Below, one piece after another: positions 3 through 45,013 of a stretch of DNA of 64,000 nt. The position numbers and the translations under genes were made by a program. Source of the stretch: Christensenellaceae bacterium (lineage in GTDB: Bacteria; Bacillota; Clostridia; Christensenellales; CAG-138); assembly GCA_963674535.1 (NCBI GenBank), contig OY771363.1, positions 177,335 through 241,334 of the forward strand, written 5' to 3'. The first letter of the stretch is position 1; each line of letters opens with the position of its first letter. Under the pieces are notes generated by a model. The model did no database searches. It was not told the DNA's origin and saw only the letters and a program-made list of their open reading frames with translations.

Positions 3-1955
3 CTTAACTGCCGCGCGTACACGAAGGAACCTGAGAGCCTCATCAAAATGAAGATGCCGTGCATAATACACTGGAGGCTTAACCATTTTATTGTTTTGGA
101 AGGTTTCCGAAACGGATATGTCTACCTGAAGGATCCGGCCGTTGGGAAGCGCAAGTTGACCATGGAGGAGTTCAGCGACGGATTCACGGGTATCGTGCTG
201 ACTTTCGAATTAACGCCGGCGTTTAAAAAAGAGAAAAAAAAGAATACGATGTGGCGGTTTATCCGCGAGCGACTGAAGGGTCAGTATTCCGTGATTTTCA
301 AGCTGTTTTACATCGGGCTTCTGCTGGTTTTTCCAGGAATCGTACTGCCGATCTTATCGCAGGTTTTCATGGACGATATTCTTGGAAACGGGTATACGGA
401 CTGGCTGACGAAGCTGCTTGTTTTTATGGGGCTTGCCGCCGTAATGAAAGTGAGCCTGACATATTATCGATATTGTCTGTTACAGAAACTGCAGAACAAG
501 ATGTCGATTCTTTCTGGTTACGGCTTTCTGCAGCATTTGTTTCGATTGCCGATTTTCTTCTTTGATCAGCGCTACGCCGGGGATATCAGCAGCCGCGTGG
601 AGGATAACACGGAAGTCAGCAAATTCCTTGCCGGGGATCTAGGCGAGACGGTGCTGCATCTTCTCGTTGCGGTTTTTTATCTGATCTTGCTGCTGCTGTA
701 CAGTCCTCAGCTTACGCTTGTCGGCCTAGGCTGCGTTGGGATCAATATCGGCATCATGCTATACAGCGCGAAACGAATCGGCGACTCGGCGATGAAACTC
801 GAGATGGATTCGGGCAAGCTTTCGGGCGTCGTATACGCAGGTATCGGCATCTCAAGCACGCTTAAAGCAGCGGGCGCAGAACATGCCTATTCCACGCGGA
901 TCATCAGCCATCAAGCGAAGGTATCCAGCCAGGAGCAGGCAATTAACAGAATTCAGCAAGTTCTGGACGCCATCCCGAACGCCGTCAGCCAGATTGCGGA
1001 CGTAATGATCCTGCTTGTCGGCGGCCTTATGGTTATGCGGGGACGGTTCACTATCGGTATGTTAGTGGCGTTTTCGTCTCTGTTCGGGTCTTTTTCGGAT
1101 CCGGTGGAGGATCTCGTCGGGTTTGTTAAAAAGATTAAATTACTGAAAACGAACATGTGCCGTGTCGAAGATATCATGCTCTACCAGCAGGACGAGACGT
1201 ATAATACCGAAAGGCCTCTCGCACCGATTAAAACGAAGCTGGCCGGAGATGTGCGCCTTGATCGGATTTCGTTCGGATACAGTCCGTATAAGGAGCCGCT
1301 GATCGAGGATTTCAGCCTGTCGATCATGAGCGGGCATTCTGTTGCGATCGTCGGACCGTCTGGTTGCGGGAAATCGACCGTATCGAAACTGATCAGCGGG
1401 TTGTATCAACCATGGTCCGGAGAAATATCGTTTGACGGTTTCGAAGCAACCACGGTGCCTGCGGAAGTCCGAAATGTCAGCGTATCGACGGTGAGCCAGA
1501 GCATAGTACTTTTCGCCGGTACAATACGTGAAAATCTTACTTTTTGGAACCCGGCGATCTTGGAATCCGACATGATTGCGGCAGCAAAGGATGCTTGCAT
1601 ACATGATATTATTATTCAGAAAGGCGGATATGATTACCGCTTGACCGAGGCTGCTTCAAACATGTCAGGCGGACAGCAGCAGAGACTGGAAATCGCGCGT
1701 GCACTAGCGACAAATCCTTCCATACTGATATTGGACGAAGCGACAAGCGCTCTGGACCCGATTGTGGAGAAACAGGTGATCGACAATATCAGACGCCGCG
1801 GCTGTACCTGCATCGTTGTTGCGCACAGGCTCAGCGCAATCCGCGATTGCGATGAAATTATTATGATGCAGCGCGGGCGCATCGTTCAGCGCGGGCGTCA
1901 CGACGAAATGGCGCATTCGAATGGCTTCTATAAAACGTTCGTTCAGAATATTTAG
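3..1955 (+). CDS. Bacteriocin/NHLM-type ABC exporter with C39 peptidase domain (peptidase-permease-ATPase); 5' end lies outside the window
   Basis: Frame 3 is open from nt 3. The first residues (IIHWRLNHFIVLEG...YLKDPAVGKRKLTMEEF) look like the C-terminal part of a C39 double-glycine peptidase domain. They are followed by a 6-TM-like region, Walker A GPSGCGKST, signature SGGQQQR and Walker B ILILDEATSALD. Confidence 0.85.
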   Translation, partial: LNCRAYTKEPESLIKMKMPCIIHWRLNHFIVLEGFRNGYVYLKDPAVGKRKLTMEEFSDGFTGIVLTFELTPAFKKEKKKNTMWRFIRERLKGQYSVIFKLFYIGLLLVFPGIVLPILSQVFMDDILGNGYTDWLTKLLVFMGLAAVMKVSLTYYRYCLLQKLQNKMSILSGYGFLQHLFRLPIFFFDQRYAGDISSRVEDNTEVSKFLAGDLGETVLHLLVAVFYLILLLLYSPQLTLVGLGCVGINIGIMLYSAKRIGDSAMKLEMDSGKLSGVVYAGIGISSTLKAAGAEHAYSTRIISHQAKVSSQEQAINRIQQVLDAIPNAVSQIADVMILLVGGLMVMRGRFTIGMLVAFSSLFGSFSDPVEDLVGFVKKIKLLKTNMCRVEDIMLYQQDETYNTERPLAPIKTKLAGDVRLDRISFGYSPYKEPLIEDFSLSIMSGHSVAIVGPSGCGKSTVSKLISGLYQPWSGEISFDGFEATTVPAEVRNVSVSTVSQSIVLFAGTIRENLTFWNPAILESDMIAAAKDACIHDIIIQKGGYDYRLTEAASNMSGGQQQRLEIARALATNPSILILDEATSALDPIVEKQVIDNIRRRGCTCIVVAHRLSAIRDCDEIIMMQRGRIVQRGRHDEMAHSNGFYKTFVQNI

Positions 1956-1967
1956 CGGGAGTAAGTT

Positions 1968-4532
1968 ATGCAGCAAAACGGACAAACACTGACATTACGG
2001 GGAGATACGACGCATATAACAAACGAGGATGCCGCTTATCGCGTAAATAAGGGTACTGTTGACGTATACATTATTCCATGGAACGACCTGCATAATCATA
2101 AATCGATTCGAATTTACAGTGTTAAACTCGGCGAGATGATCCCCTCCCTAAAATATGATGGCGATTTCAATCACAGGTCATGGCGCTTCGAATTCAAAGC
2201 TATTTCCGGCGAAGCGGAGATTTCGGTGATTCCCAATGGCAATACGCGTAAGTTGAAGAACGAATTCCTAAACAGGGCGGAAATACCGATTGACGACGCA
2301 CACAAATATGAGACGAGTCTTGTGGATTACTATATGAGACGGCGGTCCGAGGAACGCACGGCGTCGGAAAGGCAGCGTCAAAGCAGGGAAGAAGCGAAGA
2401 GAGACAACAGGAGGGTGATCCTCGACGGATTCAGCGGATCGCGTGGGCCCCAGTTTTCTGCCGACAGCTCAAACGCGATTTATAACGCGGCGAAGTATAT
2501 CTGCGCGGCCTGCCGAATCCCGATCGCCGGGATGGACACGATTCTTACCGGAGGAAACGATCTCTCACTGGAAGACGTTGCCAAAGCGTCGCGTTTCTCG
2601 TGCCGGGAAGTTACATTACAGAGCAATTGGTACAGAAACGATTGCGGGCCTTTTATCAGCAGCATGGAAGACGGTACTACGATTGCGTGCGTTCCATGCA
2701 GGTATGAGGGTTACCGATATTATAATGCCGTCACCGGCAAGGCCGGGCGCGTGACGCCCGAAATCGCGCAGAGCATATATCCGAAGGCATGGTCGATTAA
2801 TAATTCGTTTCCCGACAAATCGATGAAGGGGAAGGACCTATTTCGCTTTGGCGCCCAGAATGTCCGGCGTTTCGATATATTCATGGCCGCACTTCTTATG
2901 CTGGCGGGAACCTTGATAAGCGCGCTACTTCCCACTTTGAACCAAAAGATATATGACGACTTTATTCCTTTAGGCAGCGGGACACTGCTACTGCAGATGT
3001 GTTTTATGATCGGCTCGTTTATGATAGGGAATGTGTTCTTTTCCATTGTGAAAAACCTGTCGTTCTTCCGTGCGTCTAGCCGACTCGCATACACGATGCA
3101 GAACGCGACATATGACCGGATATTCAATCTGCCCGAGAACTTCTTCAGGCGTTTTGAAAGCGCCGATCTTGCTGTACGCGCCATGAGTATCGGACGGCTT
3201 ACCTCACAATTTACTTCGATTGTCGTTACTACGACGCTCTCAACGTTGTTCTCACTGGTCTATCTTCTGCGAATGTTCAAATACTCAGCGAAACTTACTT
3301 GGATTGCATTTTTTCTTCTGCTCGTATATTCGGCTCTCGTATACTGGATTACTTCCCGTTCGATACACTACGACCGGAAAATTCAAGAGTCCGATAACCA
3401 AGCGAATTCCATTTTCTATCAGCTAATTCGCGGAATCGACAAAATTCGGATGGCCGGTGCTGAAGATCGTTCGCAGAACGTGTATCTCCAGCCGTACATC
3501 AAATCAAGGAAGCTCGAGTTTGCAAAAGGCAAGTGGACCTATGCCGGAAACTCGCTTTCGGGCATTGTTTCGACAATCTTTTCGATGATCTTCTATTTCA
3601 TTATTATACACAAGAAATGGAATATCTCGATTGGTAGTTTTATTGCGTTCAATTCGGCATTCGGGTTGTTTTCATCGTCAGTGCTGGCCTTTGTGCAGAA
3701 CGCTATGGAGCTGAAAAGTCTTCGGCCGATCTATGAACGGTTCGCCCCGATCATTAGGGAAGCACCGGAGCATAACGAAGCAAAAGAAGTGCATCCAGCC
3801 ACGCTGAATGGAGGGATAGAACTTAGTCATGTTATGTTCGCGTACGAAAAAGACGGCGATCCGGTCATAAACGATATATCACTTAAGATCGAACCGGGCC
3901 AGTATGTTGGGATCGTAGGGCCTTCCGGATGCGGAAAGTCGACGCTTCTAAAGCTTCTGCTCGGGTTCGAAACACCTGTAAGCGGGAAAATCGCTTACAG
4001 CGGAATGGATTTAAACGCGATAGACAAACAGTCCATCCGAAAACACTTTGGCGTCGTTCTGCAAAACGGCGACTTGATTGCGGGAAGTATTTATGAGAAC
4101 ATTACGATTACAAACCCGAAAGCATCGATACAGGATGTGAACGAAATTGTGCGCGAGGTCGGGCTGCAGCCGGATATCGACGAAATGCCGATGAGACTGC
4201 AAACCATCCTGAACGAAGATGCCGGAACCATATCGGGCGGACAGAAGCAAAGAATTTTAATCGCGCGGGCACTGATCAGCAACCCTGAGATTCTGTTTTT
4301 TGACGAGGCGACAAGCGCGCTCGACAATATTACGCAGGCAAAGGTATGCGAAAGCATCCGTGCGCGCAAGAACTGCACGCGTATCGTAATCGCGCACAGG
4401 ATCAATACCATAAGATACTGCGACAGAATCATAGTCCTTGAAAACGGGCGTATCATTGAACAGGGTTCCTATGATGCGCTGATTGAGAAGAGAGGGCTAT
4501 TCTATGAATTGGCGGCTCGCCAGACGGTTTGA
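1968..4532 (+). CDS. Second ABC transporter subunit (permease + ATPase) with a ~300-aa N-terminal extension, NHLM bacteriocin-system ABC2-like
   Basis: 854 aa. Walker A GPSGCGKST, signature SGGQKQR, Walker B ILFFDEATSALD. Tandem with the C39 ABC gene, as in the TIGR03796/TIGR03797 pairs recalled from the Nif11/NHLP literature. Confidence 0.8.
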   Translation: MQQNGQTLTLRGDTTHITNEDAAYRVNKGTVDVYIIPWNDLHNHKSIRIYSVKLGEMIPSLKYDGDFNHRSWRFEFKAISGEAEISVIPNGNTRKLKNEFLNRAEIPIDDAHKYETSLVDYYMRRRSEERTASERQRQSREEAKRDNRRVILDGFSGSRGPQFSADSSNAIYNAAKYICAACRIPIAGMDTILTGGNDLSLEDVAKASRFSCREVTLQSNWYRNDCGPFISSMEDGTTIACVPCRYEGYRYYNAVTGKAGRVTPEIAQSIYPKAWSINNSFPDKSMKGKDLFRFGAQNVRRFDIFMAALLMLAGTLISALLPTLNQKIYDDFIPLGSGTLLLQMCFMIGSFMIGNVFFSIVKNLSFFRASSRLAYTMQNATYDRIFNLPENFFRRFESADLAVRAMSIGRLTSQFTSIVVTTTLSTLFSLVYLLRMFKYSAKLTWIAFFLLLVYSALVYWITSRSIHYDRKIQESDNQANSIFYQLIRGIDKIRMAGAEDRSQNVYLQPYIKSRKLEFAKGKWTYAGNSLSGIVSTIFSMIFYFIIIHKKWNISIGSFIAFNSAFGLFSSSVLAFVQNAMELKSLRPIYERFAPIIREAPEHNEAKEVHPATLNGGIELSHVMFAYEKDGDPVINDISLKIEPGQYVGIVGPSGCGKSTLLKLLLGFETPVSGKIAYSGMDLNAIDKQSIRKHFGVVLQNGDLIAGSIYENITITNPKASIQDVNEIVREVGLQPDIDEMPMRLQTILNEDAGTISGGQKQRILIARALISNPEILFFDEATSALDNITQAKVCESIRARKNCTRIVIAHRINTIRYCDRIIVLENGRIIEQGSYDALIEKRGLFYELAARQTV

Positions 4533-4553: not shown

Positions 4554-4925
4554 TTGAAAACGATGCACAGAGCTGTAAACGAGGATACACTCATTTTAAC
4601 CGACGAAGCGGGCGAAGAAATACTCCGCTTGAAAGAAACGCTGTCGGACGATGTATTTGAACTGACCGCCACCGGTAGAATTTTCGGCGAGGCGATGTTG
4701 GAATTGGAAGACGAGCTCATGGCCGCGGTCATTTCCGGCCGCTCAATTCTACTGGATTTTACAAACGTAGTGTCAATCAGCAGCGAAGTTCTGGATGTCA
4801 TACTGGCCGCACAGCAACGGGTTGAAAAAAACGATCGGCTGCGTTTTACACTGAGAGGCCTGCGCAAAAAGATTACAGAGTTATTTCACGATACAGGCTT
4901 TGATCAATTGATCAATATTGAATAA
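4554..4925 (+). CDS. STAS-domain protein (anti-sigma-factor-antagonist-like)
   Basis: 123 aa. The pattern LLDFTNVVSISSEVLDVIL resembles the SpoIIAA/RsbV phospho-serine loop, followed by a C-terminal helix ...LFHDTGFDQLINI. Start is uncertain (TTG 4554 or ATG 4563). Confidence 0.6.
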   Translation: MKTMHRAVNEDTLILTDEAGEEILRLKETLSDDVFELTATGRIFGEAMLELEDELMAAVISGRSILLDFTNVVSISSEVLDVILAAQQRVEKNDRLRFTLRGLRKKITELFHDTGFDQLINIE

Positions 4926-4955: not shown

Positions 4956-6170
4956 ATGAGAAAATTCTGCGAGGTAAATCGAAAAGAGTATTTGATTACA
5001 GGGATATTTATGCTAACCGTCGTTTCATGTCTATTTTTTATTGTCGGATGCGCGAAGATGGATCCTGTGATGGAACAGCTTCCTACGGAAAGCCGTCCGC
5101 AAGAGACAGCGTACGGCACCGCGGAAAACGAAGTGCTGGAAGACGTCATTCCTTTACAGACGGATGATAAAGCGCTGGTCGATTCCGGAACGCTCGACAG
5201 TGGCCTTGTCTGGGCGCTGTATGACAACGACGAGTGCGAAATTTCAGGTTCCGGCAGCGTTGAACGTTTTTATGACTCCTATCCGATGCGGAATTATGAA
5301 GATTCGATCAAAACACTCGTGCTTGCCGACGATGTTACGAGCGTCGGGAACAACGCTTTTCAAGGCTGTGCGAAGATCGAGAAGGTTTATATTGGCAGCG
5401 CCATTACCGAAATCGGCGAATGGGCGTTTGCTGGCTGTTCCTGTTTAACGACTATAACGATTCCAGACACCGTCACCAGCGTTGGCAGTTACGCTTTTAA
5501 CGGATGCACAGCCATGAAGAGCATTATCTTCGGCAGCGGACTGACAAGCATCGGGTACGGTACGATTCATGAATGTCCAGCATTGATAAGCGTTACCGTG
5601 CAGTCAAGCGTACCGGATCGTGCTTTTCAGGATTGTACGTCGGTTGTGAGCGTGTCGTTGGGCGATCAGGTTGAGACCATTGGCGATCATGCGTTCAGCG
5701 GTTGTACCGCGTTGGCGAATGTTTCAATGTCTGAGGGGCTTTTGCTGATTGATACCAGCGCGTTTGACGGTTGCATTGCGCTGCGCAGCATCAGCGTTCC
5801 AGACAGCGTTACGATGCTTGGTGACAGTGCGTTTGAAAAATGTACTTTACTCAGCGACGTAAAACTGGGCTGTGGCCTTACGAGCATCGGCCGTTGGGCT
5901 TTTCTGTGGTGCACTTCGCTTAAGACAATCAAAATACCCGACCAAACCAAATCGATCGGCGAAAAGGCTTTTGCGGAATGTTCGGTGCTTGAAAGCATTG
6001 CGCTACCGAAAGGCCTGACAACACTGGCATATGGTATTTTCCTGAACGATTCCGCGTTGCATACGATCCATTATACAGGTACACAGGCTGAATGGGAGAG
6101 AATAAAAAAAGAGAAATGTTGGAAAGACGGAATCGACTCTATAGCAATGCAATATGAGTCAAACGGATAA
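4956..6170 (+). CDS. BspA-type leucine-rich-repeat (LRR_5) lipoprotein
   Basis: Signal peptide with lipobox FFIVGC. Repeated units of the form xxIGxxAFxGCxxLxxIxIPxxVTSIG throughout the protein. Confidence 0.8.
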   Translation: MRKFCEVNRKEYLITGIFMLTVVSCLFFIVGCAKMDPVMEQLPTESRPQETAYGTAENEVLEDVIPLQTDDKALVDSGTLDSGLVWALYDNDECEISGSGSVERFYDSYPMRNYEDSIKTLVLADDVTSVGNNAFQGCAKIEKVYIGSAITEIGEWAFAGCSCLTTITIPDTVTSVGSYAFNGCTAMKSIIFGSGLTSIGYGTIHECPALISVTVQSSVPDRAFQDCTSVVSVSLGDQVETIGDHAFSGCTALANVSMSEGLLLIDTSAFDGCIALRSISVPDSVTMLGDSAFEKCTLLSDVKLGCGLTSIGRWAFLWCTSLKTIKIPDQTKSIGEKAFAECSVLESIALPKGLTTLAYGIFLNDSALHTIHYTGTQAEWERIKKEKCWKDGIDSIAMQYESNG

Positions 6171-6217: not shown

Positions 6218-8632
6218 ATGAAACGGAATATGTTGCCATACGAAGGAAACGAATCATACATCTTTGTGAGCTATTGCCATAAAGACAGGGATTTCGTTTT
6301 TCCGATCATAGAAGAACTGCAGAAATGTGGCTGCCGCATCTGGTTCGACCGGGGTATTAATCCCGGAAATGACTGGCCGGATGTGATTGCCGAACATCTT
6401 AAAGAGTGTGAAATATTCATACCGTTTTTATCTGAACAATCCGTCTCGTCGCATAATTGCAGGAGAGAATGGAACTATGCAGTTGCGGAGAATAAGCCTA
6501 CGGTTCCAGTATTCATTGAACAAGTGATGCCTACGCCGGCGATGAAGATGCAACTGGCTTCTTTGCAGGCGCTTATCGCGTATGAGTTTGACTCGAAGGA
6601 CTCGTGCGCAAAAAAGCTATTCAGTCTACCTATGCTGAAAAAATGCCTTGAAGAACCGGCCGTCGTGTCAGCTAGCTGTCGAGTGACATATTTTGCGGAA
6701 GACGGGGAAACAATTATTCAATCCGGCGCATATGAGCAGGGTTCCATCGTCCGAGAGCCGGCTCCTCCAGATAAGGAATCCGATGAAAACAACACATATA
6801 CGTTTGCCGGGTGGAAGCTGCTGGATGGGACGGCCCTGAAAGACGACGGCGTATGCGTGGACAGCGCTTCCTATGCTGCAACATACAACGAAACACCCCG
6901 AAAATCGGGCGATGGTATATGCGTGGACAACGCTTCTTATGCGGCAACATGCAACACAATACCGCAGAAATCGGTGGAGCAGGGTTCTGATGAGATTGAA
7001 TCACGCACGGAGATAACCAATGCTTCGCTGATCCCGGATGACAAAACGAGGCCGATCGTTTCCATCGGGATGAAACCTGTATTAATCGGTCACAATTCCG
7101 CAGTTTGCGATTATGTGCTTGACGCGCCACTGATTAGCCATGAACACGCATTGATCCGTTGTGACGGATTTACCTGCTACCTAAAAGACAACAGCAGCGG
7201 AAACGCTACGTTTGTCAATGGAGAACGTATTGCGCCGGACGTTGAAGAACAGGTTTATCATGACGATATCATCGTTTTTGGCGGCGAGAAATTCCAGCTG
7301 GAGATTCCGAAAAACCCGAAAACGCGAAACGCGAAAGACTACAGGGTTACTTTCTATTCCGACGATGGGTTCACGCTGATCGCCGAAGGAAATTATCATT
7401 TGGGCGACATCGTTAAGCTGCCGACTGCGCCCGCAAAAAGCATGGATGAGGTTTATCGCTATACGTTTTTAGAATGGAAGCTGCTGAGCGGCACCGCGTT
7501 GAGTAAAGGGAATGTCTGCGCCGGCGAAACGAGCTATACGGCGATATATTCAAAAGAAAAGATTGCGTATACGGTCGGGTATTTTAACGAGAACGGGACG
7601 AAGGCGATATCCAGCGCGCAATATCACTACGGGGATAGGATCAATGAACCCGCCGCTCCCGAAAAAAAAGCCGATGCGGAGTACCAATATACATTTGCCG
7701 GATGGACGCTTTTTAATGGGAAAAATCCAGGCTCGGGAAACGTTTGCCTGGGGGGCGCGACATTCCGAGCAACATATAAGAAAGCAACTCGGGAGTACAG
7801 GATTACGTATTATGCAGAAGACGGCGTAACCGTGATTTCCAGCGGCATGTACCGCCGGGGCGATGTGATCAAGCCGCCCACAAATCCGCCCGGGACCATG
7901 CTTTCCGAATTTGATGGATGGAAGCTGGTAGGTGGAACGGCCTTAAAGAACGGGAAAATCTGTGACGGGAACGCCGAATACAAAGCCGAATATAGGGAAA
8001 GCAGAACGGTAACCGCAAGCGGGTTCCTGGTTCGTATGAAAACAAAAGAAGTGATCCCAATCCTAAAAGAACTCCTGCTGGGCAGCAGTCCCCGCACGGG
8101 CGGCTACGCGATATCAAGCGCAAAAGGGATTTGTGCAGAGCATGCGAAAATTGTAGGACGCGGCTTTCAGTACTTTCTTTTCAATCTCAGCGACTCGAAT
8201 GCAACGCACGTAAACCAAACGCGCATTGCGGGTGGCGAGGAGGTTCGGGTTTACCACAACGACACAATCACGCTGGGCGAAGAGGATTTCCGCCTGATTA
8301 CTAACGATAAGATAAAACGCCCGCAGAAAGTAACGGAAAAGAAGATGGCGTACCTTCTGCTGACAGACATCGGCTTGAAAATAAGGATCGATCATACGCC
8401 TTTCGAACTCGGGCGAAGCTATCAGGAGATTTGGACCAGCCTAAAGGTCGGTCGCCAGCACGCGACGATCATTATTAAGGGTGAAGAATATTATCTAGCA
8501 GACTTTCCGCCATATTCGAAAAATGGTATTTTTCTAAAAGGAGACTTGCTAGAAAGATCGGTTGAGTATCTGCTCCATCCGGGAGATCAGATTCGAGTTG
8601 CTGATGTTAGTTGTAAATTTTTAGTCGAGTAG
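6218..8632 (+). CDS. Multidomain TIR - Listeria/Bacteroides (InlB B-type) repeats - three FHA domains; no signal peptide or TM segment
   Basis: The N-terminus YIFVSYCHKDRDFVFPII...RIWFD...SEQSVSSHNCRREWNYA fits TIR_2. There are three FHA-like blocks: GHNSAVCDYVL..ISHEHALI...NGERI; LLGSSPRTGGYAI...AEHAKIV...NQTRI; FELGRSYQ...GRQHATII. Repeats carrying YTFAGWKL / YTFLEWKL / YTFAGWTL / FDGWKL lie between them. Confidence 0.8.
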   Translation: MKRNMLPYEGNESYIFVSYCHKDRDFVFPIIEELQKCGCRIWFDRGINPGNDWPDVIAEHLKECEIFIPFLSEQSVSSHNCRREWNYAVAENKPTVPVFIEQVMPTPAMKMQLASLQALIAYEFDSKDSCAKKLFSLPMLKKCLEEPAVVSASCRVTYFAEDGETIIQSGAYEQGSIVREPAPPDKESDENNTYTFAGWKLLDGTALKDDGVCVDSASYAATYNETPRKSGDGICVDNASYAATCNTIPQKSVEQGSDEIESRTEITNASLIPDDKTRPIVSIGMKPVLIGHNSAVCDYVLDAPLISHEHALIRCDGFTCYLKDNSSGNATFVNGERIAPDVEEQVYHDDIIVFGGEKFQLEIPKNPKTRNAKDYRVTFYSDDGFTLIAEGNYHLGDIVKLPTAPAKSMDEVYRYTFLEWKLLSGTALSKGNVCAGETSYTAIYSKEKIAYTVGYFNENGTKAISSAQYHYGDRINEPAAPEKKADAEYQYTFAGWTLFNGKNPGSGNVCLGGATFRATYKKATREYRITYYAEDGVTVISSGMYRRGDVIKPPTNPPGTMLSEFDGWKLVGGTALKNGKICDGNAEYKAEYRESRTVTASGFLVRMKTKEVIPILKELLLGSSPRTGGYAISSAKGICAEHAKIVGRGFQYFLFNLSDSNATHVNQTRIAGGEEVRVYHNDTITLGEEDFRLITNDKIKRPQKVTEKKMAYLLLTDIGLKIRIDHTPFELGRSYQEIWTSLKVGRQHATIIIKGEEYYLADFPPYSKNGIFLKGDLLERSVEYLLHPGDQIRVADVSCKFLVE

Positions 8633-9190: not shown

Positions 9191-9523
9191 GTGGATAAGT
9201 TGGAAAGATTACAAGAACTTTTACAGCAACAAAATGCAAACGACATTTTTGTTGGGACTTTGGAAGAAACTCAAAAGCGACTTAAAGAAAAGGGATTAGA
9301 TTTCTCTGTTGAGGAGCTTCGTGTACTCGCAGAAGGTGTGCTAGATTCACAATTAGCAAGCAAATCTGAATTGAGTGAAAGCGACTTGGAACTCGTTACA
9401 GGTGGCAAAAATCGCTATACTGGCGTAAATAGAGACATGTATGAAATTGGTTATATATTAGGAAAAACCGCGCGAGACGTACTTGGTTGGGCGAAAAAAC
9501 TCGGAGCGATATTTGGTTTTTAA
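9191..9523 (+). CDS. Nif11-like leader peptide precursor 1 (double-glycine cleavage, 38-aa cationic core)
   Basis: GGAGG lies 5 nt upstream of the GTG start. The leader ...KGLDFSVEELRVL...SELSESDLELVTGG matches the Nif11/N11P leader pattern ending in GG. The core KNRYTGVNRDMYEIGYILGKTARDVLGWAKKLGAIFGF has no Cys. Confidence 0.75.
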   Translation: MDKLERLQELLQQQNANDIFVGTLEETQKRLKEKGLDFSVEELRVLAEGVLDSQLASKSELSESDLELVTGGKNRYTGVNRDMYEIGYILGKTARDVLGWAKKLGAIFGF

Positions 9524-9537
9524 CGGAGGAAGGCAGA

Positions 9538-9849
9538 ATGGAATACGAAAAGTTACAGCAGGTCGCAGAGATGATACAAGATACTGCGATTGCAGCATCA
9601 TTTAAAGGCATATCGATCGAAGACGCTGTGAAGCTTTTTTCGAAAAAGGGAATTGAGATTACAAAAGAAGACCTGTACGAAATTAGACACATGGCCGAAA
9701 CGAACGAGAAGATGTCAGATGAATTATCGGAAATCGAGCTTGATGTAGTTACGGGTGGTGGATTTAGCCTTCGTGATTGGTGGAGAAAATATAGGGGCGC
9801 CTATAAAGCAGCCTTTGAAGGTTTCTTTAATGGCCTTGTTGGGATGTAG
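9538..9849 (+). CDS. Nif11-like leader peptide precursor 2 (double-glycine cleavage, 29-aa core)
   Basis: A GGAGGA RBS precedes ATG 9538. Leader ...KKGIEITKEDLYEI...MSDELSEIELDVVTGG; core GFSLRDWWRKYRGAYKAAFEGFFNGLVGM. The ORF-track start at 9487 overlaps precursor 1 and is less likely. Confidence 0.75.
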   Translation: MEYEKLQQVAEMIQDTAIAASFKGISIEDAVKLFSKKGIEITKEDLYEIRHMAETNEKMSDELSEIELDVVTGGGFSLRDWWRKYRGAYKAAFEGFFNGLVGM

Positions 9850-9985
9850 TTAGCGATAATTCAGAACAAGTTGATGTTTTGGTATTTAACACTCCACTTT
9901 ATGTTTTAGAGAAAGGTTTGTTACAGACAACGATGAGGCAGGGCACGTGAGTTGCCCTGCCAGATGAAAATCAGCCGGTGGGAAT

Positions 9986-10198
9986 ATGGATCGAACAAAA
10001 CAAGTTGAAAAATTATTAAAGTTATTTGCCGATATGCAGGACCTCTTTGATCCGAAAGATGAACTGTCATCAATTATAGCAGAGCTCGGCGGCCGTTCGG
10101 AAGGAGAACTGTCCGATGATGAACTCGATTTAGTTATTGCTGCAGCGAAAGATCCCCGGATGGCTTCTAATATTAGGAACAGGAAAAAGGGAACATGA
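9986..10198 (+). CDS. Leader-like small peptide 3 (acidic ELSDDELDLV motif but no GG), stop overlapping the PP2C start
   Basis: 70 aa. ...GELSDDELDLVIAAAKDPRMASNIRNRKKGT. Its TGA (10196-10198) overlaps ATG 10195 of the next gene. Confidence 0.45.
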   Translation: MDRTKQVEKLLKLFADMQDLFDPKDELSSIIAELGGRSEGELSDDELDLVIAAAKDPRMASNIRNRKKGT

Positions 10199-10974
10199 TA
10201 CTGCAAGCTTGCGTTTATACGCACGTTGGCCGCTGCAGAATGAATAACGAAGATAATTACTATCTTTGTGGAGCCATTAAGCGGGATTTGGAATTGCCGG
10301 CCGAACGAAAGGATGATATGCGGTCGGCAAATTCCGGTGCGTTGTATGCGGTATGCGACGGCATAGGCGGAGAAGAGATGGGAGAAGCAGCTTCCTTGGC
10401 CGCCGTTTCGGCATTAAGAATAGCGACGGAGCCAGATCCGTACCCGGCGGCGAGACAAAACACACACGATGCTAACAATGCAGTATGGAGCCTTACAACC
10501 GCGCGGGGATATGGACGCGCCGGAACGACGATTGCCGCTTTAAGCGTCAACGCAAGCTCGGTGCTTGCCTACAATGTCGGCGACAGCCGGATATATCGGT
10601 ATCATAAACAGACGCTGACACAACTGTCAAAAGATCATACTGCAACGCAGCAGATGGTTGATCTTGGGATCATTACTGAACAAGAAGCGAAGGTTCACCG
10701 CGACAGAAACAAACTGATGTTATATCTGGGGCTGCCTTCGGAGGAGATGGTGCTGGAACCGTATATTTCAGAGACTATCCCACTGCAACCGGACGATGTT
10801 TACATCCTATGTTCCGACGGACTGTTTACAATGGTCTCTGATGAAAGTATTGCGGAGCTCGTTTCAAAAAGCGGAACGGTTGACCAGATCTGCACGGTAT
10901 TAGTGGACGAAACGCTTCTCAATGGCGCCAAAGACAACGTTACCGTTCTTGTTGTGAAAGTCGTTGAGGATTAA
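10195..10974 (+). CDS. PP2C-family Ser/Thr protein phosphatase
   Basis: Motifs NEDNYY, YAVCDGIGGEEMGEAAS, LCSDGL and DNVTVLVV are typical of PPM/PP2C (Stp-like) enzymes. Confidence 0.9.
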   Translation: MILQACVYTHVGRCRMNNEDNYYLCGAIKRDLELPAERKDDMRSANSGALYAVCDGIGGEEMGEAASLAAVSALRIATEPDPYPAARQNTHDANNAVWSLTTARGYGRAGTTIAALSVNASSVLAYNVGDSRIYRYHKQTLTQLSKDHTATQQMVDLGIITEQEAKVHRDRNKLMLYLGLPSEEMVLEPYISETIPLQPDDVYILCSDGLFTMVSDESIAELVSKSGTVDQICTVLVDETLLNGAKDNVTVLVVKVVED

Positions 10975-11684: not shown

Positions 11685-14072
11685 ATGGACATCATTGATT
11701 TTGAACCGCTTTTTAGCGATTGGACGGTTGACTCATTTATTGGGGCGGGTTCGTTTGGTAAAGTATATAAGATAAAACGCGAGGAATTTGGCACGGTTTA
11801 TTACTCAGCGTTGAAGTGGATTTCGATTCCAAAGGACGATACGGAACTAAAACAATTGCGTTATGACGGGATGGATAATGAATCGATTTCGGAGTATTAC
11901 ACAAACCTGGTTAAGGACCTATCAAACGAGTTAAAGCTAATGAGAAGCCTTAGGGGGCGCAGTAGCATTGTCAGCTACGAAGATCACAGGATTATAGCAA
12001 AACCGGATCGGAAGGGTTATGATATTTTGATCCGCATGGAGTTACTTACGAGCCTAAACGACTATATGCTTAGCCATGCGCTATCGCGCGCGGAGTTGAT
12101 TCGGCTTGGCATTAATATTTGTGAAGCGCTGGAACTTTGCCAGAGATATAATATTATCCATCGAGATGTCAAGCCAGACAATGTCTTTGTTACTGAGATT
12201 GGGGACTTCAAACTTGGCGATTTTGGCATTGCGCGACAGCTAGAAGGAACGATGTCGGGTCTTTCGATAAAAGGGACGTACGATTATATGGCACCTGAGG
12301 TGTACAAAAGAGAACGGTACAGTTCGAGTATCGACGTCTACTCTCTCGGAATTCTGATTTATCGATTGCTGAATGATGGACGGTTGCCATTCTTGCCCCT
12401 TGCTCAAGCAACGATCCGCCCGAGCGACCGCGATCAGAGCTTTGCTAGACGAATGAGCGGAGAAGCGATGCCGCCACCGCGGAATGCAGAAGGGCGACTA
12501 GGTGAAATCGTGCTGAAAGCGTGCGCTTATGACCCGAAAGATCGGTACTCCAGTCCGAAGCAGATGCGGGAGGAATTACAATCGATACAGTTTACACCGG
12601 AAGAGGCTCGGATGATCTTTCGAGACGGGGACGATCTCGGCCATGTTGAACCCAGCGTAAGAGAGACCGAAACGGAGCAAGTAGCTCAAGAAGTGGAAGT
12701 GACGGATAGCTTCGGGTATATGGCTGAGACGTACTCGCAAGAGACTCAGGATAAAATAGAGAGCGGAGAAGAAGTAGAACATGAAGATATTGATAAAACA
12801 AAGACAAGCCCAGAGAAGAAAGCACTGCTCGCTAGGATTATTGTGGCTATAGCAATTGTTGGATTAGCTGTAGTATGCGCATGTTTATATGGCCGTGTTG
12901 TTAAAATTAGTATAAACGCAACCAGTTATGATATGGAAGTTGGTAGCTCCCAAGTGCTGTTAACTAGTGTAACACGCTTTTTAAAAGGAACGCAATATGA
13001 ATCTGTTCAATGGGCATATGATGAGAGTGTTGTGTCTCTTGACGGGGATGGAACTTTTACTGCAATCGGCGAAGGCGAGGCACTAATTGAAGCTCATCTT
13101 GATAATGTGAAAGCTTCTTGCACTATAAGTGCACAATACCCTACAATTACTCTTGGCACAACGAGTTTTAAAACGAATTCAACCGAATTGGATTTATCCG
13201 ATCAGGGAATCACAGACATTTCCCCGCTCTCCGAATGCCGCTGCCTTACCAGTTTGGATCTTTCACGCAACCCAATAACTAGTTTAGAACCTCTACAGTA
13301 TGTATCAACTCTTGAATATCTGAATATAAACGAAACTCAAGTTGTCAACCTTGAACCGCTCGGATCCCTAAAACAGCTCAAAAGCGTTGATATACGCGAC
13401 ACTCAAATCCCTGACTTATCCCCACTTAGCGATGATGTAAATGTGAACATGAATATGAATCTTATTAAGCGCGTCAACTTAGATTTTGATGATTTTTATA
13501 GCCTAAGCGAAGAAGATTTTGGGGTTAATTTTGGTGGCCGCCAAATCACTTGGACGAGCTTTGATACAACGGTTGCATGGTGTGAAAATGGTGATATTGG
13601 AACTACGAGTATCCAAAGGGATATTACAAAATCTATGTTACGAACATTCATTACAGGTTCGGTTGAAAATACAAATACACTATTAATGTATATTATACAT
13701 ATACCATGCGAGACATACTCATTTAAACAAGGCAATGAAACCCACTTTCCCGATAATTGGATTGCTTGGCCCCAAATAATCTCTCCCAAAATAGAGAACT
13801 GCTATGGCTTTGCGATTACAATAAATAGTAGTAAGGAGCATGCTGTTCAATATTCATCAGATTGGTATATTTATATTAAAGATGATGAAGGATGGGAAAG
13901 AATATTTACGATATATATAGAAGAAGGCGTCGAAAACAGTACAAATATTAAATTTGATGCTCCTTTGAACATCTTAGAAATCGCACTTGTTCCAAAGGGA
14001 AATAAACTGAATGGAGACACAACTTGGTATAATTATATTACACTGTCAGATTTAGTCTTCGCAAGAAATTAG
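11685..14072 (+). CDS. Hanks-type Ser/Thr protein kinase with one TM helix and an extracellular Big_2-like + LRR + unknown C-terminal region
   Basis: GAGSFGKVYK, ALK, HRDVKPDN, DFG and APE motifs. TM helix LLARIIVAIAIVGLAVVCACLY near aa 385. LRR units are DLSDQGITDISPLSECRCLTSLDLSRNPITSLEPL... The last ~200 aa were not recognised. Confidence 0.9.
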   Translation: MDIIDFEPLFSDWTVDSFIGAGSFGKVYKIKREEFGTVYYSALKWISIPKDDTELKQLRYDGMDNESISEYYTNLVKDLSNELKLMRSLRGRSSIVSYEDHRIIAKPDRKGYDILIRMELLTSLNDYMLSHALSRAELIRLGINICEALELCQRYNIIHRDVKPDNVFVTEIGDFKLGDFGIARQLEGTMSGLSIKGTYDYMAPEVYKRERYSSSIDVYSLGILIYRLLNDGRLPFLPLAQATIRPSDRDQSFARRMSGEAMPPPRNAEGRLGEIVLKACAYDPKDRYSSPKQMREELQSIQFTPEEARMIFRDGDDLGHVEPSVRETETEQVAQEVEVTDSFGYMAETYSQETQDKIESGEEVEHEDIDKTKTSPEKKALLARIIVAIAIVGLAVVCACLYGRVVKISINATSYDMEVGSSQVLLTSVTRFLKGTQYESVQWAYDESVVSLDGDGTFTAIGEGEALIEAHLDNVKASCTISAQYPTITLGTTSFKTNSTELDLSDQGITDISPLSECRCLTSLDLSRNPITSLEPLQYVSTLEYLNINETQVVNLEPLGSLKQLKSVDIRDTQIPDLSPLSDDVNVNMNMNLIKRVNLDFDDFYSLSEEDFGVNFGGRQITWTSFDTTVAWCENGDIGTTSIQRDITKSMLRTFITGSVENTNTLLMYIIHIPCETYSFKQGNETHFPDNWIAWPQIISPKIENCYGFAITINSSKEHAVQYSSDWYIYIKDDEGWERIFTIYIEEGVENSTNIKFDAPLNILEIALVPKGNKLNGDTTWYNYITLSDLVFARN

Positions 14073-14455: not shown

Positions 14456-15322
14456 GCCCCCCGGTCAAGGTGAACGCGGAGGCAAGCTTGACGACTAGGG
14501 GCCTTAGCCTCTTCCAAGTGTGCGCGGCGAAAAAGGAGGGGGGGCGCAAATACTCGACAAAATGGCGCCCCAAGACGAGAACTTCAAAGTCGAAGAAACC
14601 CGCATAAACAGGGCGTTTTTTAAATCTTTGAAGTATAAATATTGAGAAGAAAAACCGGGAGTTTTTGCGGGGTCGCGACGCTTTTTGGAAGCTACAAATA
14701 TCGAGAAAATTGATCGATTTTTCAGCAATATAACAAGCCATATGAAAACCATAACGAACCACACGGCAGTAGTGTGGTTTTTTATTATTTTTCCCATCGG
14801 AGTAAAAGGTGAGATATTGAGAACTCGCATGATTTTTCAAGCCATAATTGACCAAACCATACCGTAAGGAAACCATAGTGAGTCTTTGGTGACTGAGCGG
14901 CTCGTCATGGTTTTTCTGGTTTCCTCAATACGAATATGATTAAACTTTTCTATTCGCTCTTCAGGTCGGATCATACTTGCACGAAAAACCAAGAGTCACA
15001 CTGGGAAATTCACGTCAAATCCAGGCGTTTAGGTCCAAGTGAATACAATCCCTCACGCAGCATTATTGAATGGTCTTTATAAGATTTTTCACATAGTGAC
15101 CTTATGTTGAATTGCGTTGAATCGCTGTGCGAATCTTTGCTTATCAAATTTAAGGTTATAGGCTCCTAAAAGATGTCCGCTTTTGTCCTCTTTTTCGTTG
15201 TGGAATGTGTAGACGCGAACATGTGTTTGTAATAACATATCAATATGGAACACAACAACAACCGTTCTGTAGTTGAATGATCTCACGCAGACAAAGGAAC
15301 GTGAGCAAAAGGAGGACTGTAT

Positions 15323-15502
15323 TTGAAGAACGAATGGATTCGCGAAATGGCGAAATTGAAAGGAGTTCTGCTGTGGCAAATCGCAGACAGACTGGGAATC
15401 ACGGACGGGAACTTCTCTCGCAGACTGCGCCATGAGATGACACAGGAAGAACAGGAAAGGATCAGGGTGATTATCGACGAACTGGCGGAAGAACAAGAAT
15501 GA
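15323..15502 (+). CDS. Small HTH DNA-binding protein (59 aa, TTG start), not in the ORF track
   Basis: AAAGGAGGA RBS, then TTG. MKNEWIREMAKLKGVLLWQIADRLGITDGNFSRRLRHEMTQEEQERIRVIIDELAEEQE. An identical copy lies at 52534-52713. Confidence 0.55.
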   Translation: MKNEWIREMAKLKGVLLWQIADRLGITDGNFSRRLRHEMTQEEQERIRVIIDELAEEQE

Positions 15503-15559
15503 TAGAGTGGCGTCTGCAACATGACTTGATACAGTGCAGGGGTGATCGGGTGAAAAAGT

Positions 15560-16413: not shown

Positions 16414-16502
16414 TGTTCCGATAAACATCTGAAATCGGACTTGATTGTCGGTTCGATAAGAGCGAACATGCTGAATGACGTAAGAAGGGAGGATGCAAAA
16501 AC

Positions 16503-17864
16503 GTGGCCACAATACTGGAGCGAAACGGTGGTTACCTGATCATGGTCAGCGAAGGGTATGGCCTGGATGGGCGGCAGAAACGAAAGCTCATGACATGGAG
16601 ACCGGAGCCGGGCATGACGAAACGGCAAATCAAAGAAGAACTCACGCTGCAAGCAGCCCTGTTCGAGCGCAGAGTACGATCCGGCCAGGTGCTGGACGGG
16701 CATGTGACGTTCGCGGAATTCGTAGAGCGCTGGAGACGGGATTACGCGGAATTGAACCTTGCCCCGAAAACGCTGGTTCGTTACGGCGAACTGCTGAAGC
16801 GCATCCTCCCTGCAATCGGACACATTCGATTGGACAAGCTGCAGCCGCACCACCTCATGGCCTTTTACGCCGGTCTGCAGAACGCGGAGAATCAAAGCGG
16901 GGCGTCTTTCAAAGCGACGCCTCGCTTGCTATCCGTGTTTGAGCAATCGGGAATGACACGCCAAGCCCTGGCAGACGAAGTTGAGTGCCATGTGAATACG
17001 ATCTACCGTCTGATCCGTGGCCAGGGGGTCGACATCCGCATTGCGCAGGAGGCATGCGATATTCTCGGGGTTCCATTTGCCGAGGGAGCAGAATCGACGA
17101 AACCCGTGCACCAGTTGGCGGGAAAGACGATCAACCACCATCACCGGCTAATCTCGTCGATCCTGAATCAAGCGGTATTCTGGCAGGTGATCACGGACAA
17201 CCCTTCACACCGGGTGAAGCCACCCAAGGTCGAGCGAAAAGAGGCAAAATACCTTGATGAAGAGCAGACCGCGACTCTTCTGCACTTATTGGAAAGCGAA
17301 CCATACCAGAATCAGGTGATGATCCGGCTGTTCCTGCTCAGCGGGGTACGGCGCGGGGAGCTTTGCGGGCTGGAGTGGAAGGACATCGACTTCAAAAACA
17401 ACATGATAACAATCTGCCGAACGTCACAATACCTGCCGGAGAAAGGCATCTTTACGAAAGGCACGAAAACGGATTCTTCCGTACGTACGATCAGGCTGCC
17501 GGAGCAGACGTTTGAGATGTTGAAAGAGTTTCGTAAATGGCAGAGAAAAAGGCGTGTCGCTGTAGGCGACCGCTGGGTTGACTGTGATCGACTTTTCACG
17601 CAAGATGATGGCTCACCGATTCATCCCGACAGTATATCGGGTTGGTTTCACGATTTCATATCGCGGACCGACCTGCCACAGATCTCGATCCACTCCCTGC
17701 GGCACACGAATATCACGCTACTGCTTGCGGCGGGGATTCCGTTGAAGACGGTGAGCTATAGGGCGGGGCATGCGCAGACCTCGACGACCGCGAACATCTA
17801 CTCGCATGCGATAAGGACGGCGGATGAGAAGGCGGCGGAGGTGCTAGAGAATATTGTGTATTAA
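16503..17864 (+). CDS. int: Tyrosine recombinase/integrase (phage integrase family)
   Basis: 453 aa with an N-terminal SAM-like/core-binding region. The C-terminal catalytic region has RRGELCGLEW, HSLRHT and ...NIYSH (catalytic Tyr). Confidence 0.9.
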   Translation: MATILERNGGYLIMVSEGYGLDGRQKRKLMTWRPEPGMTKRQIKEELTLQAALFERRVRSGQVLDGHVTFAEFVERWRRDYAELNLAPKTLVRYGELLKRILPAIGHIRLDKLQPHHLMAFYAGLQNAENQSGASFKATPRLLSVFEQSGMTRQALADEVECHVNTIYRLIRGQGVDIRIAQEACDILGVPFAEGAESTKPVHQLAGKTINHHHRLISSILNQAVFWQVITDNPSHRVKPPKVERKEAKYLDEEQTATLLHLLESEPYQNQVMIRLFLLSGVRRGELCGLEWKDIDFKNNMITICRTSQYLPEKGIFTKGTKTDSSVRTIRLPEQTFEMLKEFRKWQRKRRVAVGDRWVDCDRLFTQDDGSPIHPDSISGWFHDFISRTDLPQISIHSLRHTNITLLLAAGIPLKTVSYRAGHAQTSTTANIYSHAIRTADEKAAEVLENIVY

Positions 17865-33328: not shown

Positions 33329-34687
33329 GATAACGTCCATATAATGGTGTAAATTCGAGAAAGAGCCATCCGCTCGACCTTGGTATAATCAGGTTGCAGA
33401 AACCAAAAACACCAAGGAGGAAGAAACAGATGGCCCAGATCAATCTTACCGTAGACAGCGAACTAATAAAAGAGTTGTTTTCGGCAAATGGAAAAGATGA
33501 GGCGTTCGCTGCCCTGGTATCGACGATCCTGAACCAAGTACTCAACGCTCAAGCCAGCGAGCAAATTGGCGCACAGCCATATGAGCGCAGCGATGAGCGG
33601 CAGGCTTACCGTAACGGGTATCGAGAACGAGAGCTTCATACACGGGTGGGAACGCTGCAGCTGCTCGTGCCGCGACTTCGAAACGGGGAATTCAGCACCG
33701 AACTGTTTCAAAAATATCAACGGAGCGAGCAAGCTTTGGTGCTGACAATCATGGAGATGGTTGTTAACGGGGTATCTACTCGAAAGATTACAACGATCAC
33801 CGAAGAGCTGTGCGGCAGATCGTTCTCCAAGTCCACCGTGTCGGCGCTGTGTGCCGCGTTAGACCCTGTCGTCATAGCGTTTCGAGATCGACAGCTGGAG
33901 AAGCGATATCCCTTCGTGATGGCAGACGCCCTTTACACAAAGGTACGTGAGAATGGCCGGATTCGCTCCAAGGGATTCATGATCGCCGTAGGGATCAATG
34001 AACAGGGTTTTCGCGAAATACTGGGTTTCAGTTGCGCGGACAGTGAAACAGAAGCTGGATGGACCACCTTCTTCAGGGAACTGAAAGGCCGGGGGCTTGC
34101 TCAAGTTGACATGGTCATATCCGACTCTCACAAGGGCCTTGTCCAGGCCGTGAAGCAGTGTTTTCAAGGAGCAACATGGCAAAGATGCCAAACCCACTTC
34201 TCTCGCAACATGCTGGACGTTTGTCCCAAGAAACTTCATCCGGAGATGAAGGCGGCACTAAAGAGCCTGTATGAAGCGGGCGATTACGAAACGGCAATTC
34301 TCCTGAGAGACAGTATGCTATCAAGGTTTCAGCAGGAAGCTCCTAAAGCGGCCGCATTGCTTGAAGAGAGCTTCGAAGACGTAATGGCCGTGCTGTCCTT
34401 GCCATATACCCTGCGCCGTCGTCTTCGAACGACAAACGGAATTGAGCGGCTTAACGAGGAGATCCGGCGCAGAGAGCGAGTGATTCGGATTTTCCCCAAT
34501 GAAGAATCCCTGTCCCGCCTGATCGGAGCCCTGCTCATGGAAATCAATGATGGCTGGCAATCGGGGAAAGTCTATTTGGACTTGACTGCCTATCTCGCTC
34601 AGCAACTACAGGTGGATAAACCAACTGAAAAGAAATCTGTCGCCTGATTATGCTAAAGCGAATTTACACACAATTCTGGACTTGACT
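33329..34687 (+). mobile_element. IS256-family insertion sequence, complete, with 8-bp target site duplication CTGAAATC
   Basis: TSD copies at 33321-33328 and 34688-34695. Imperfect terminal inverted repeats share ...GTGTAAATTCG. One transposase gene. Confidence 0.85.
33430..34647 (+). CDS. IS256-family (mutator-type) transposase
   Basis: 405 aa. ...ERSDERQAYRNGYRERELHTRVGTLQLLVPRLRNGEF... and ...VISDSHKGL...WQRCQTHFSRN are hallmarks of the family. Confidence 0.9.
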   Translation: MAQINLTVDSELIKELFSANGKDEAFAALVSTILNQVLNAQASEQIGAQPYERSDERQAYRNGYRERELHTRVGTLQLLVPRLRNGEFSTELFQKYQRSEQALVLTIMEMVVNGVSTRKITTITEELCGRSFSKSTVSALCAALDPVVIAFRDRQLEKRYPFVMADALYTKVRENGRIRSKGFMIAVGINEQGFREILGFSCADSETEAGWTTFFRELKGRGLAQVDMVISDSHKGLVQAVKQCFQGATWQRCQTHFSRNMLDVCPKKLHPEMKAALKSLYEAGDYETAILLRDSMLSRFQQEAPKAAALLEESFEDVMAVLSLPYTLRRRLRTTNGIERLNEEIRRRERVIRIFPNEESLSRLIGALLMEINDGWQSGKVYLDLTAYLAQQLQVDKPTEKKSVA

Positions 34688-42544: not shown

Positions 42545-42561
42545 GAAAGATGTATGCCTCC

Positions 42562-44998: not shown

Positions 44999-45013
44999 TG
45001 GATTTAACCTCCC

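Follow-up and report, generated by a model that had tools for sequence, protein, structure and literature searches.

TIR domains that cleave NAD+ (NADase TIRs) are known from AbTir, SPARTA TIR-APAZ, Cat1, ThsB and BtpA. For NADase TIRs activation by self-association is the rule, and in Cat1, SPARTA, AbTir and SARM1 self-association of the TIR domains forms composite active sites. The known bacterial TIR enzymes respond to intracellular infection triggers such as Thoeris triggers, cyclic oligoadenylates or Argonaute. The triad of Ser/Thr kinase, PP2C phosphatase and FHA protein is known to gate type VI secretion. The NHLP/Nif11 peptide export system was described as a three-gene transporter only; the paper has no mention of STAS, and where it names a Ser/Thr kinase it deals with Burkholderia clusters that are unrelated (Haft et al., 2010; PMC2887384). 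Here we analyzed a stretch of 64,000 nucleotides from a Christensenellaceae bacterium (assembly GCA_963674535.1, contig OY771363.1, positions 177,335 to 241,334 of the forward strand; hereafter the window), in which a protein with parts reminiscent of all these systems is encoded. It is the 804-amino-acid (aa) product of the open reading frame (ORF) at 6218..8632 on the + strand and consists of an N-terminal TIR domain, a repeat of the Flg_new type followed by a partial copy, a first FHA domain, three further repeats and two closing FHA domains (Table 1). The start codon ATG is preceded by GGAG at a distance of 9 nt, and the N-terminus agrees with those of homologues. The whole architecture was found in only three lineages, represented by the orthologues P0001 (90% identity), P0034 (779 aa, 34%) and P0047 (719 aa, 35%). 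We tentatively read the protein from its sequence as a cytoplasmic, phosphorylation-controlled TIR output module of a clostridial cassette, and we hold this reading with a confidence that falls somewhat short of even.

The initial annotation had placed a TIR_2-like domain at the N-terminus, and this was borne out in a whole-protein scan, in which Pfam TIR_2 matches aa 15-117 (E=1.5e-23) with 84.1 bits against a cut-off of 28. It had also pointed to a candidate catalytic glutamate within an SxxxCRREW motif, which was found as S78-H-N-C81-R-R-E84-W85. An alignment of 22 N-terminal TIR domains of the clade has 16 invariant positions (22/22), including S18, D44, S78, C81 and E84, while H79 and N80 are shared by 90% or more of these sequences; the active-site motif of the clade is S-H-N-C-[RK]-[RK]-E. 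In a profile search of solved structures Cat1 was the first match (E=1.4e-7). S78-H-N-C-R-R-E84 aligns over Cat1 S68-D-W-C-W-D-E74, and S18, D44 and S78 align with the active-site residues S7, D33 and S68; altogether, Cat1 S7, H8, N9, N10, D33, S68 and E74 correspond to S18, Y19, C20, H21, D44, S78 and E84. It was shown that these seven Cat1 residues line the NADase site and that the alanine mutants tested, including D33A, S68A and E74A, are inactive (PMC12162218). E84 thus lies over a residue whose replacement abolishes activity, and at the same position the alignment has a Gln in MyD88, a scaffolding TIR.

The AlphaFold model of aa 1-155, built on the alignment of the 22 clade domains, reaches a mean predicted local distance difference test score (pLDDT) of 90.2 and a predicted template modelling score (pTM) of 0.86. 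Its best matches among solved structures are SPARTA TIR-APAZ with NAD+, SARM1 with NAD+, AbTir with 3AD and BtpA, and the TIR domains of MyD88, TLR15 and TRAM rank below the NADase TIRs. With NADase TIRs the domain shares the flavodoxin-like fold, the glutamate on helix C and the pocket residues Ser, Asp and Ser. Taken together, the conserved residues and the model suggest that the TIR domain is a probable NAD-cleaving enzyme, and the claim of a catalytic glutamate at E84 holds as a predicted activity, with the active site being a conserved variant of the form given above. The expected folds were also seen in the AlphaFold model of the full protein; no domain arrangement was obtained from this full-length model (pTM 0.31).

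The three FHA-like domains that the initial annotation had placed at about nt 7070-7313, 8070-8300 and 8400-8629 agree with the limits found here. Pfam FHA matches the whole protein with 113 bits over three stretches, and FHA1, FHA2 and FHA3 scanned singly score 58.9, 29.4 and 36.5 bits, in each case more than the cut-off of 20.7, so that the TIR and FHA assignments both exceed their Pfam cut-offs. Models of the FHA domains match solved FHA structures at template modelling scores of 0.6-0.78. The binding pockets differ from each other. In FHA1 the alignment places H292 at the position of the phosphate-binding Arg of SLMAP (KIGRS), with S307, H310 and N329 kept. In FHA2, S623 and C639 replace Arg and Ser, i.e., the domain is devoid of both phosphate ligands, and it is likewise degenerate in P0034 and P0047. 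FHA3 keeps R733, H748 and N769-G770, and its G745 aligns under Ser326 of EmbR. Pocket statistics were collected over 56 FHA domains from other TIR-FHA proteins: the Arg position holds R in 45, K in 4 and H in none, the Ser position holds S in 41 and G in 12, including single-FHA proteins with Gly, and the His and Asn are kept in 55/56 and 51/56 domains, respectively. FHA3 is therefore family-typical and probably functional as a predicted reader of phosphothreonine (pThr). The exchange of Arg for His in FHA1 looks like a lineage-specific change whose effect on pThr binding is doubtful. The initial annotation had spoken of three phosphothreonine readers; what stands of this are the three FHA folds and the family-typical pocket of FHA3, while the number is overstated because of His292 in FHA1 and the loss of Arg and Ser in FHA2. 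As judged from these residues, a fair description of the set is one clear reader, one doubtful reader and one pseudo-FHA.

The gene belongs to a conserved and apparently undescribed cassette of gut Clostridia. Its order is ECF (extracytoplasmic function) sigma factor, HlyD-like gene, NHLM-type ATP-binding cassette (ABC) transporter gene ABC1 with C39 peptidase, ABC2, Nif11-leader peptides, STAS, TIR protein, PP2C and a Hanks-type kinase with a leucine-rich repeat (LRR) ectodomain. The window carries the TIR motifs of the clade, STAS and the NHLM ABC pair upstream, and PP2C and kinase downstream; as it begins within ABC1, the presence of the ECF sigma and HlyD-like genes is not visible here. 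Both genes lie 5' of ABC1 in orthologous cassettes (L083:1662-3074; L001:3378-4894), and homologues were found in ~22 loci for the ECF sigma factor and in ~16 loci for HlyD. The same gene order was seen at P0001, P0034 and P0047, at the short TIR-FHA proteins P0004 and P0008, and in L001, L003, L014, L017, L024 and L083-L087, among others. A clade-motif scan of species-representative genomes confirmed at least 556 loci, mostly from gut and rumen metagenome-assembled genomes of Lachnospiraceae, Oscillospiraceae, Ruminococcus and other Clostridia. Co-occurrence was counted over 79 retrieved loci with 97 TIR genes, annotated by phmmer with the window proteins as queries; the counts are minimum values, given the many short contigs and the single-sequence queries. 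Of the FHA-bearing TIR genes, 17/23 have a kinase within 6 kb, compared to 2/74 of the others (Fisher p=4e-12), PP2C is near 11/23 compared to 3/74 (Fisher p=3e-6), and STAS is directly upstream of 20/23 compared to 9/74 (Fisher p=5e-11). This conserved synteny backs the tie to the kinase and the PP2C phosphatase that had been proposed from the window.

The TIR head of the clade is also found in an arrangement that does without the FHA domains. In three loci (L006, L013, L022) the cassette comprises ABC1, ABC2, peptides, STAS and the TIR gene, and the encoded protein consists of the TIR domain, a transmembrane (TM) helix and a long C-terminal LRR ectodomain, a layout confirmed by Pfam for L006 and L013 and by phmmer annotation for L022. 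By phmmer annotation neither kinase nor PP2C was found in these three loci. A fourth locus, L016, encodes the same TIR-TM-LRR layout and lacks a STAS, ABC1 or ABC2N match, and in L028 an RCC1-like ectodomain stands in place of the LRR. The LRR ectodomains of the TIR-TM-LRR proteins match the ectodomain of the window kinase in phmmer, a similarity that is generic for LRRs. This suggests two ways of coupling one TIR head to an extracellular sensor, either directly by fusion or via kinase, pThr and FHA, and the module swap is the strongest argument that the FHA domains read the kinase of the cassette.

Further arrangements were observed among the retrieved loci. In L012, L019 and L023 (~9.9-13.9 kb) the TIR is TM-anchored and the FHA domain is located on a separate multi-TM protein beside PP2C. 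At L074:5964-9083 a TIR of the same clade is fused to a double FtsK/SpoIIIE ATPase. L041, L052, L057 and L067 contain tandem arrays of 2-4 TIR genes, some with BspA-type LRR_5 repeats and devoid of a TM helix.

For the protein as a phosphorylation-controlled output module the following course can be proposed. The kinase ectodomain would sense an extracellular cue, plausibly the exported peptide or envelope damage caused by peptides, and the kinase would then phosphorylate Thr residues in its own juxtamembrane segment or on a partner such as STAS. FHA3, and possibly the His-variant FHA1, would dock the TIR-FHA protein on these pThr sites, so that crowding might drive TIR self-association and, judged from the conservation of the active site, NAD+ cleavage. 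The outcome could be bulk NAD+ depletion or an NAD-derived signal, and PP2C would reset the system. The Flg_new repeats may serve as rigid spacers, taking the place of the low-complexity or coiled-coil linkers of the relatives. Multivalent, phosphorylation-driven oligomerization, as suggested in the initial annotation, may also occur.

Several observations weigh against this proposal. N80 aligns with Cat1 W70, i.e., the Trp of the WxxxE motif of known NADase TIRs is an Asn here. In AbTir this residue, W204, turns inward, contacts the substrate analogue and is linked to the production of cyclic ADP-ribose (cADPR) (PMC10641520). Activity or product may therefore differ from those of the known NADases. 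Furthermore, the pocket is non-canonical in two of the three FHA domains, a pure NADase model leaves STAS and the ECF sigma factor unexplained, and PP2C was found near only 11 of the 23 FHA-type genes, a lower bound given the phmmer annotation and truncated contigs.

The STAS and sigma factor genes are at the center of the main alternative explanation, which we consider rather unlikely. The TIR would be a non-enzymatic adaptor, comparable to an anti-sigma factor or a regulator of the exporter, and would act as interaction module of a partner switch made up with the kinase, PP2C and STAS, the latter being a domain of anti-anti-sigma type. The switch would control the ECF sigma factor or the gating of the ABC exporter and would replace the circuit of pheromone, histidine kinase and response regulator of class II bacteriocin loci. 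Models for it are the PpkA/PppA/Fha1 pathway of type VI secretion and the circuits of sigma factor, anti-sigma factor and STAS. The ECF sigma homologue indeed stands at the head of the cassette in ~22 loci and the HlyD-like gene is present in ~16, no separate anti-sigma gene was recognized, and the topology of TIR, TM helix and ectodomain is that of ECF anti-sigma factors. In 20/23 FHA-type and 9/46 TM-type cases STAS is the gene that immediately precedes the TIR gene. The adaptor would also fit the best NCBIfam match of the FHA part, which is TagH, an FHA protein of type VI secretion. However, the clade shows no variation at the residues that correspond to the NAD-binding and catalytic site of Cat1, and enzymatic TIRs rank above scaffolding TIRs as structural neighbors. 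FHA domains recognize pThr, while the classical phosphorylation site of STAS proteins is a Ser, and we know of no precedent for a TIR domain binding a sigma factor. The adaptor and the NAD-cleaving output module are not mutually exclusive.

The likeness to type VI secretion extends to the layout of the PpkA/PppA/Fha1-TagH pathway, in which a membrane-bound Hanks kinase, whose sensor is extracytoplasmic, is encoded together with a PP2C and an FHA protein beside an export machine, and the pairing of kinase and FHA also resembles mycobacterial PknB with FhaA and GarA. In contrast to type VI secretion, export in this cassette would rely on an ABC peptide exporter of the NHLM/PCAT type, and the FHA protein has a TIR head that is predicted to be enzymatic. 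The TagH equivalog model scores 61 bits against a cut-off of 120, and no type VI secretion genes were found in the window. With the NHLP/Nif11 export system the cassette shares matching ABC1 and ABC2 proteins, Nif11-like GG-leader peptides and, in the orthologous cassettes, the HlyD-like gene.

Anti-phage abortive infection, in which the kinase detects infection and the FHA-TIR protein depletes NAD+ as in Thoeris, SPARTA or Stk2-type defense, appears improbable. In its favor, the TIR resembles ThsB models weakly in PADLOC (E 1e-4 to 1e-5), the kinase weakly resembles the PD-T4-6 and MAD6 kinase models, a retron TIR and a Thoeris type III protein are weak NCBIfam matches, and integrase genes and a type I-E CRISPR-Cas locus are located within the window. 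The scores of the defense models are, however, far under the family cut-offs and reflect generic TIR and kinase homology; the ThsB matches reach 15-20 bits. In contrast to the NADase TIRs of defense operons, the TIR here is fused to FHA domains and located in a kinase/PP2C/peptide-exporter cassette, and a signal-receptor effector such as ThsA is missing: no ThsA-like SIR2/SLOG or Macro protein was found among the cassette genes and neighbors. An anti-phage role also fits poorly with the extracellular sensors (LRR, RCC1, Big_2) and with the conservation of a peptide exporter together with its substrates. No full-length relatives were found in plasmid or phage collections and no relatives on IMG/VR viral contigs, which likewise speaks against such a role and led us to reject an origin on a mobile element.

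The repeats between the signaling domains are normally seen in secreted or surface proteins. Four to five Listeria/Bacteroides-type repeats had been counted, which resolve into four full copies and one 24-aa partial copy. Pfam Flg_new matches the whole protein with 48.5 bits against a cut-off of 27, while the single repeats reach 15-26 bits each and stay under it. The partial copy (aa 227-250) duplicates the end, i.e., the last strand, of repeat 1, and TRF detected no tandem repeat for it at the DNA level. The region has a pLDDT of 75-88 in the full-length model, and its best fold match is YwfG, a cell-surface protein. The likeness to InlB B-repeat/Flg_new surface proteins therefore covers both Pfam family and fold. 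The initial annotation had remarked on the oddity of surface-type repeats in a protein with neither signal peptide nor TM helix, and this is confirmed: no signal peptide, TM helix or GG-type leader was found in the protein, the first two being excluded because the Kyte-Doolittle mean over 19 residues peaks at 1.12 and residue 13 is already the first of the TIR fold.

A secreted or surface adhesin leaving the cell by a non-classical route, e.g., through the neighboring ABC exporter, is accordingly very improbable, and we rejected it for want of any signal peptide, TM helix or GG-type leader. The exporter encoded nearby would suit such an adhesin, as would the outcome of the exhaustive whole-protein search, which returned mostly large proteins matched through the repeats alone (most of the top 150 representative matches are of 1000-6000 aa); a second search with the alignment as query added almost nothing. 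On the other hand, TIR and FHA, dealing with NAD+ and kinase-made pThr, are cytoplasmic modules, and the N-terminus is the TIR fold itself. Moreover, the repeats form a distinct subtype: a 7-aa insertion after the GW motif (W-K-L-L-x-G-T-x-L) is common to the repeats of this protein and of P0001, P0034 and P0047, i.e., down to orthologues at 34% identity, and is absent from the extracellular Flg_new repeats of P0002 and P0005. Unlike in the surface proteins, the repeats are thus cytoplasmic and placed between signaling domains. In other TIR-FHA proteins the segment from the TIR to the first FHA domain is low-complexity, acidic or coiled-coil, the linkers span 20 to ~600 aa, the first FHA domain starts between aa 167 and aa 740, and 1-3 FHA domains are present. 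This points to the Flg_new repeats being a rigid spacer recruited from surface proteins rather than a surface-binding module. The BspA-type LRR_5 gene is a conserved neighbor of the Flg_new-bearing TIR-FHA orthologues.

The cassette can also be compared to animal TLR/IL-1R-MyD88-IRAK signaling and to plant LRR receptor kinases and TIR immune receptors, with which it would share the logic of LRR, TM helix, TIR and Ser/Thr kinase and the clustering of TIR domains as switch; the sister cassettes encode true TIR-TM-LRR proteins, as in TLR logic. In the reverse of the TLR topology, the TIR lies at the N-terminus and the LRR at the C-terminus, and kinase and TIR would be coupled by FHA and pThr and not by death domains as in TLR-MyD88-IRAK. 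The likeness is one of domains and wiring and does not imply common descent. In a wider version of the output-module reading, which seems possible to us but on the unlikely side, gut and rumen Clostridia would possess a peptide-linked, receptor-driven TIR pathway. Its LRR ectodomains would sense exported Nif11-leader peptides or damage, the TIR would be reached either directly or via kinase, pThr and FHA, with PP2C and STAS regulating, and the output would be NAD+ depletion or an NAD-derived messenger. Such a pathway might be a bacterial counterpart of Toll/IL-1R signaling that serves in the sensing of kin or competitors.

No published description of TIR-FHA proteins or of the cassette was found in full-text literature searches. 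FHA is mentioned only sporadically in a paper on conflict systems (eLife 2020) and is not mentioned in a survey of TIR domains (PMC7075850). TIR+FHA proteins are already present, unnamed, in databases, and all parts are known domains; the cassette as such may be a new type of signaling or conflict system. The TIR appears here under an extracellular sensor, reached by Ser/Thr phosphorylation or by LRR fusion, and tied to peptide export. If true, this would be a new way of switching on TIR NADases, would tie the biology of bacteriocins or pheromones to NAD+ metabolism and would provide a bacterial example of the LRR-TIR-kinase logic of animal and plant immunity, with the FHA and TM-LRR variants as a natural experiment on wiring. 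Given the width of the clade, with at least 556 loci, the system may matter for gut and rumen ecology.

Table 1. Positions of the TIR-FHA gene, its domains, the neighboring cassette genes and related TIR-TM-LRR genes (window nucleotides unless a locus is given).
Feature	Position	Strand	Basis
TIR/Flg_new/FHA protein; cytoplasmic, devoid of signal peptide or TM helix	6218..8632	+	ORF call, Pfam
TIR_2 domain, aa 15-118, fold to ~aa 145	6260..6571	+	Pfam; AlphaFold model, pLDDT 90
E84 codon, candidate catalytic Glu of S78-H-N80-C-R-R-E84; N80 at Trp place of WxxxE	6467..6469	+	Cat1 alignment
Flg_new-type repeat 1 (aa 153-226) and 24-aa partial duplicate (aa 227-250)	6674..6967	+	profile scan
FHA1, aa 282-362; G291-H292 (Arg to His); S307..H310 and N329 kept	7061..7303	+	Pfam, alignment
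Flg_new-type repeats 2-4 (aa 373-447, 448-526, 526-601), intracellular subtype	7334..8020	+	profile scan; model pLDDT 75-88
FHA2, aa 617-693; degenerate pocket G622-S623, C639..H642	8066..8296	+	Pfam, alignment
FHA3, aa 722-801; family-typical pocket G732-R733, G745-R746..H748, N769-G770	8381..8620	+	Pfam, alignment
NHLM-type exporter pair: ABC1 with C39 peptidase (cut by window start) and ABC2 (1968..4532)	48..4532	+	Pfam, NCBIfam
STAS-domain protein; directly upstream of TIR gene in relatives	4554..4925	+	Pfam, NCBIfam
BspA-type LRR_5 protein, 404 aa, probable lipoprotein (..FIVGC..)	4956..6170	+	Pfam
Three small ORFs: 9191..9523, 9487..9849, 9986..10198	9191..10198	+	sequence, NCBIfam
PP2C Ser/Thr phosphatase, Stp1-like	10195..10974	+	Pfam, NCBIfam
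Hanks-type Ser/Thr kinase, TM helix ~aa 381-403, Big_2 and LRR ectodomain	11685..14072	+	Pfam
Terminator-like hairpin with T tract, probable operon end	14756..14780	+	sequence
TIR-TM-LRR genes, Toll-like-receptor-like layout	L006:9909-12626, L013:9989-12613, L016:5880-8324, L022:7264-9504		

As to the other cassette genes of the window, ABC1 and ABC2 match the TIGR03794, TIGR03796 and TIGR03797 models with 811 and 737 bits, respectively; the curated cut-off is passed by ABC2 only, with ABC1 staying under it because it is cut by the window start. ABC2 has an N-terminal extension of ~290 aa (window 1968-2870, aa 1-300) for which no Pfam or PDB sequence match was found. A stand-alone homologue of this extension (L002:1407-1865) adjoins STAS in a cassette that has no ABC genes. 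There are hints that the extension is a regulatory domain of the system.

The three small ORFs downstream of the TIR-FHA gene are unannotated. The first two (9191..9523 and 9487..9849) encode a Nif11-like leader, a VTGG cleavage site and a cationic amphipathic core, and from these features their products look like bacteriocins; peptide-modifying enzymes are not encoded in the cassette of the window. In the third (9986..10198), a region resembling a leader and a VIAA site are followed by a short hydrophilic tail. Its family was found at 13 loci; in this family the leader-like part ends in AA and the tail reads P-D-Y-x-x-F-L in many members, and the product could be a signaling peptide or a regulator of the exporter. 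In the phosphatase the DG and DN motifs that are characteristic of PP2C enzymes were recognized by eye, and in the kinase the motifs GxGxFG, HRDxKPxN, DFG and APE are intact, so that both enzymes look active by their motifs. The juxtamembrane segment of the kinase is acidic and Thr-rich, with 7 Thr in 67 aa.

No Rfam or tRNA features were found in the window. Elsewhere it contains a complete type I-E CRISPR-Cas locus, with an array from 35531 to ~40500 made of ~82 units of 61 nt (repeat GGATCACCCCCGCGCGTGCGGGGAATAG) and cas genes at 40669-49935 on the - strand that encode Cas3, Cse1, Cse2, Cas7, Cas5, Cas6e, Cas1 and a Cas2-DnaQ exonuclease fusion. A WYL-domain regulator is encoded at 50411..51496. 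Near-identical direct copies of one module are located at 14594-16565 and 51796-55539 (83-100% over the detected pieces), each including a tyrosine-integrase gene (16503..17864 and 55477..56850). The copies flank ~37-39 kb with sugar-utilization genes, a Mutator-family transposase gene (33394..34647) and the CRISPR-Cas locus, and the flanked region may be a composite mobile element that begins right after the cassette.

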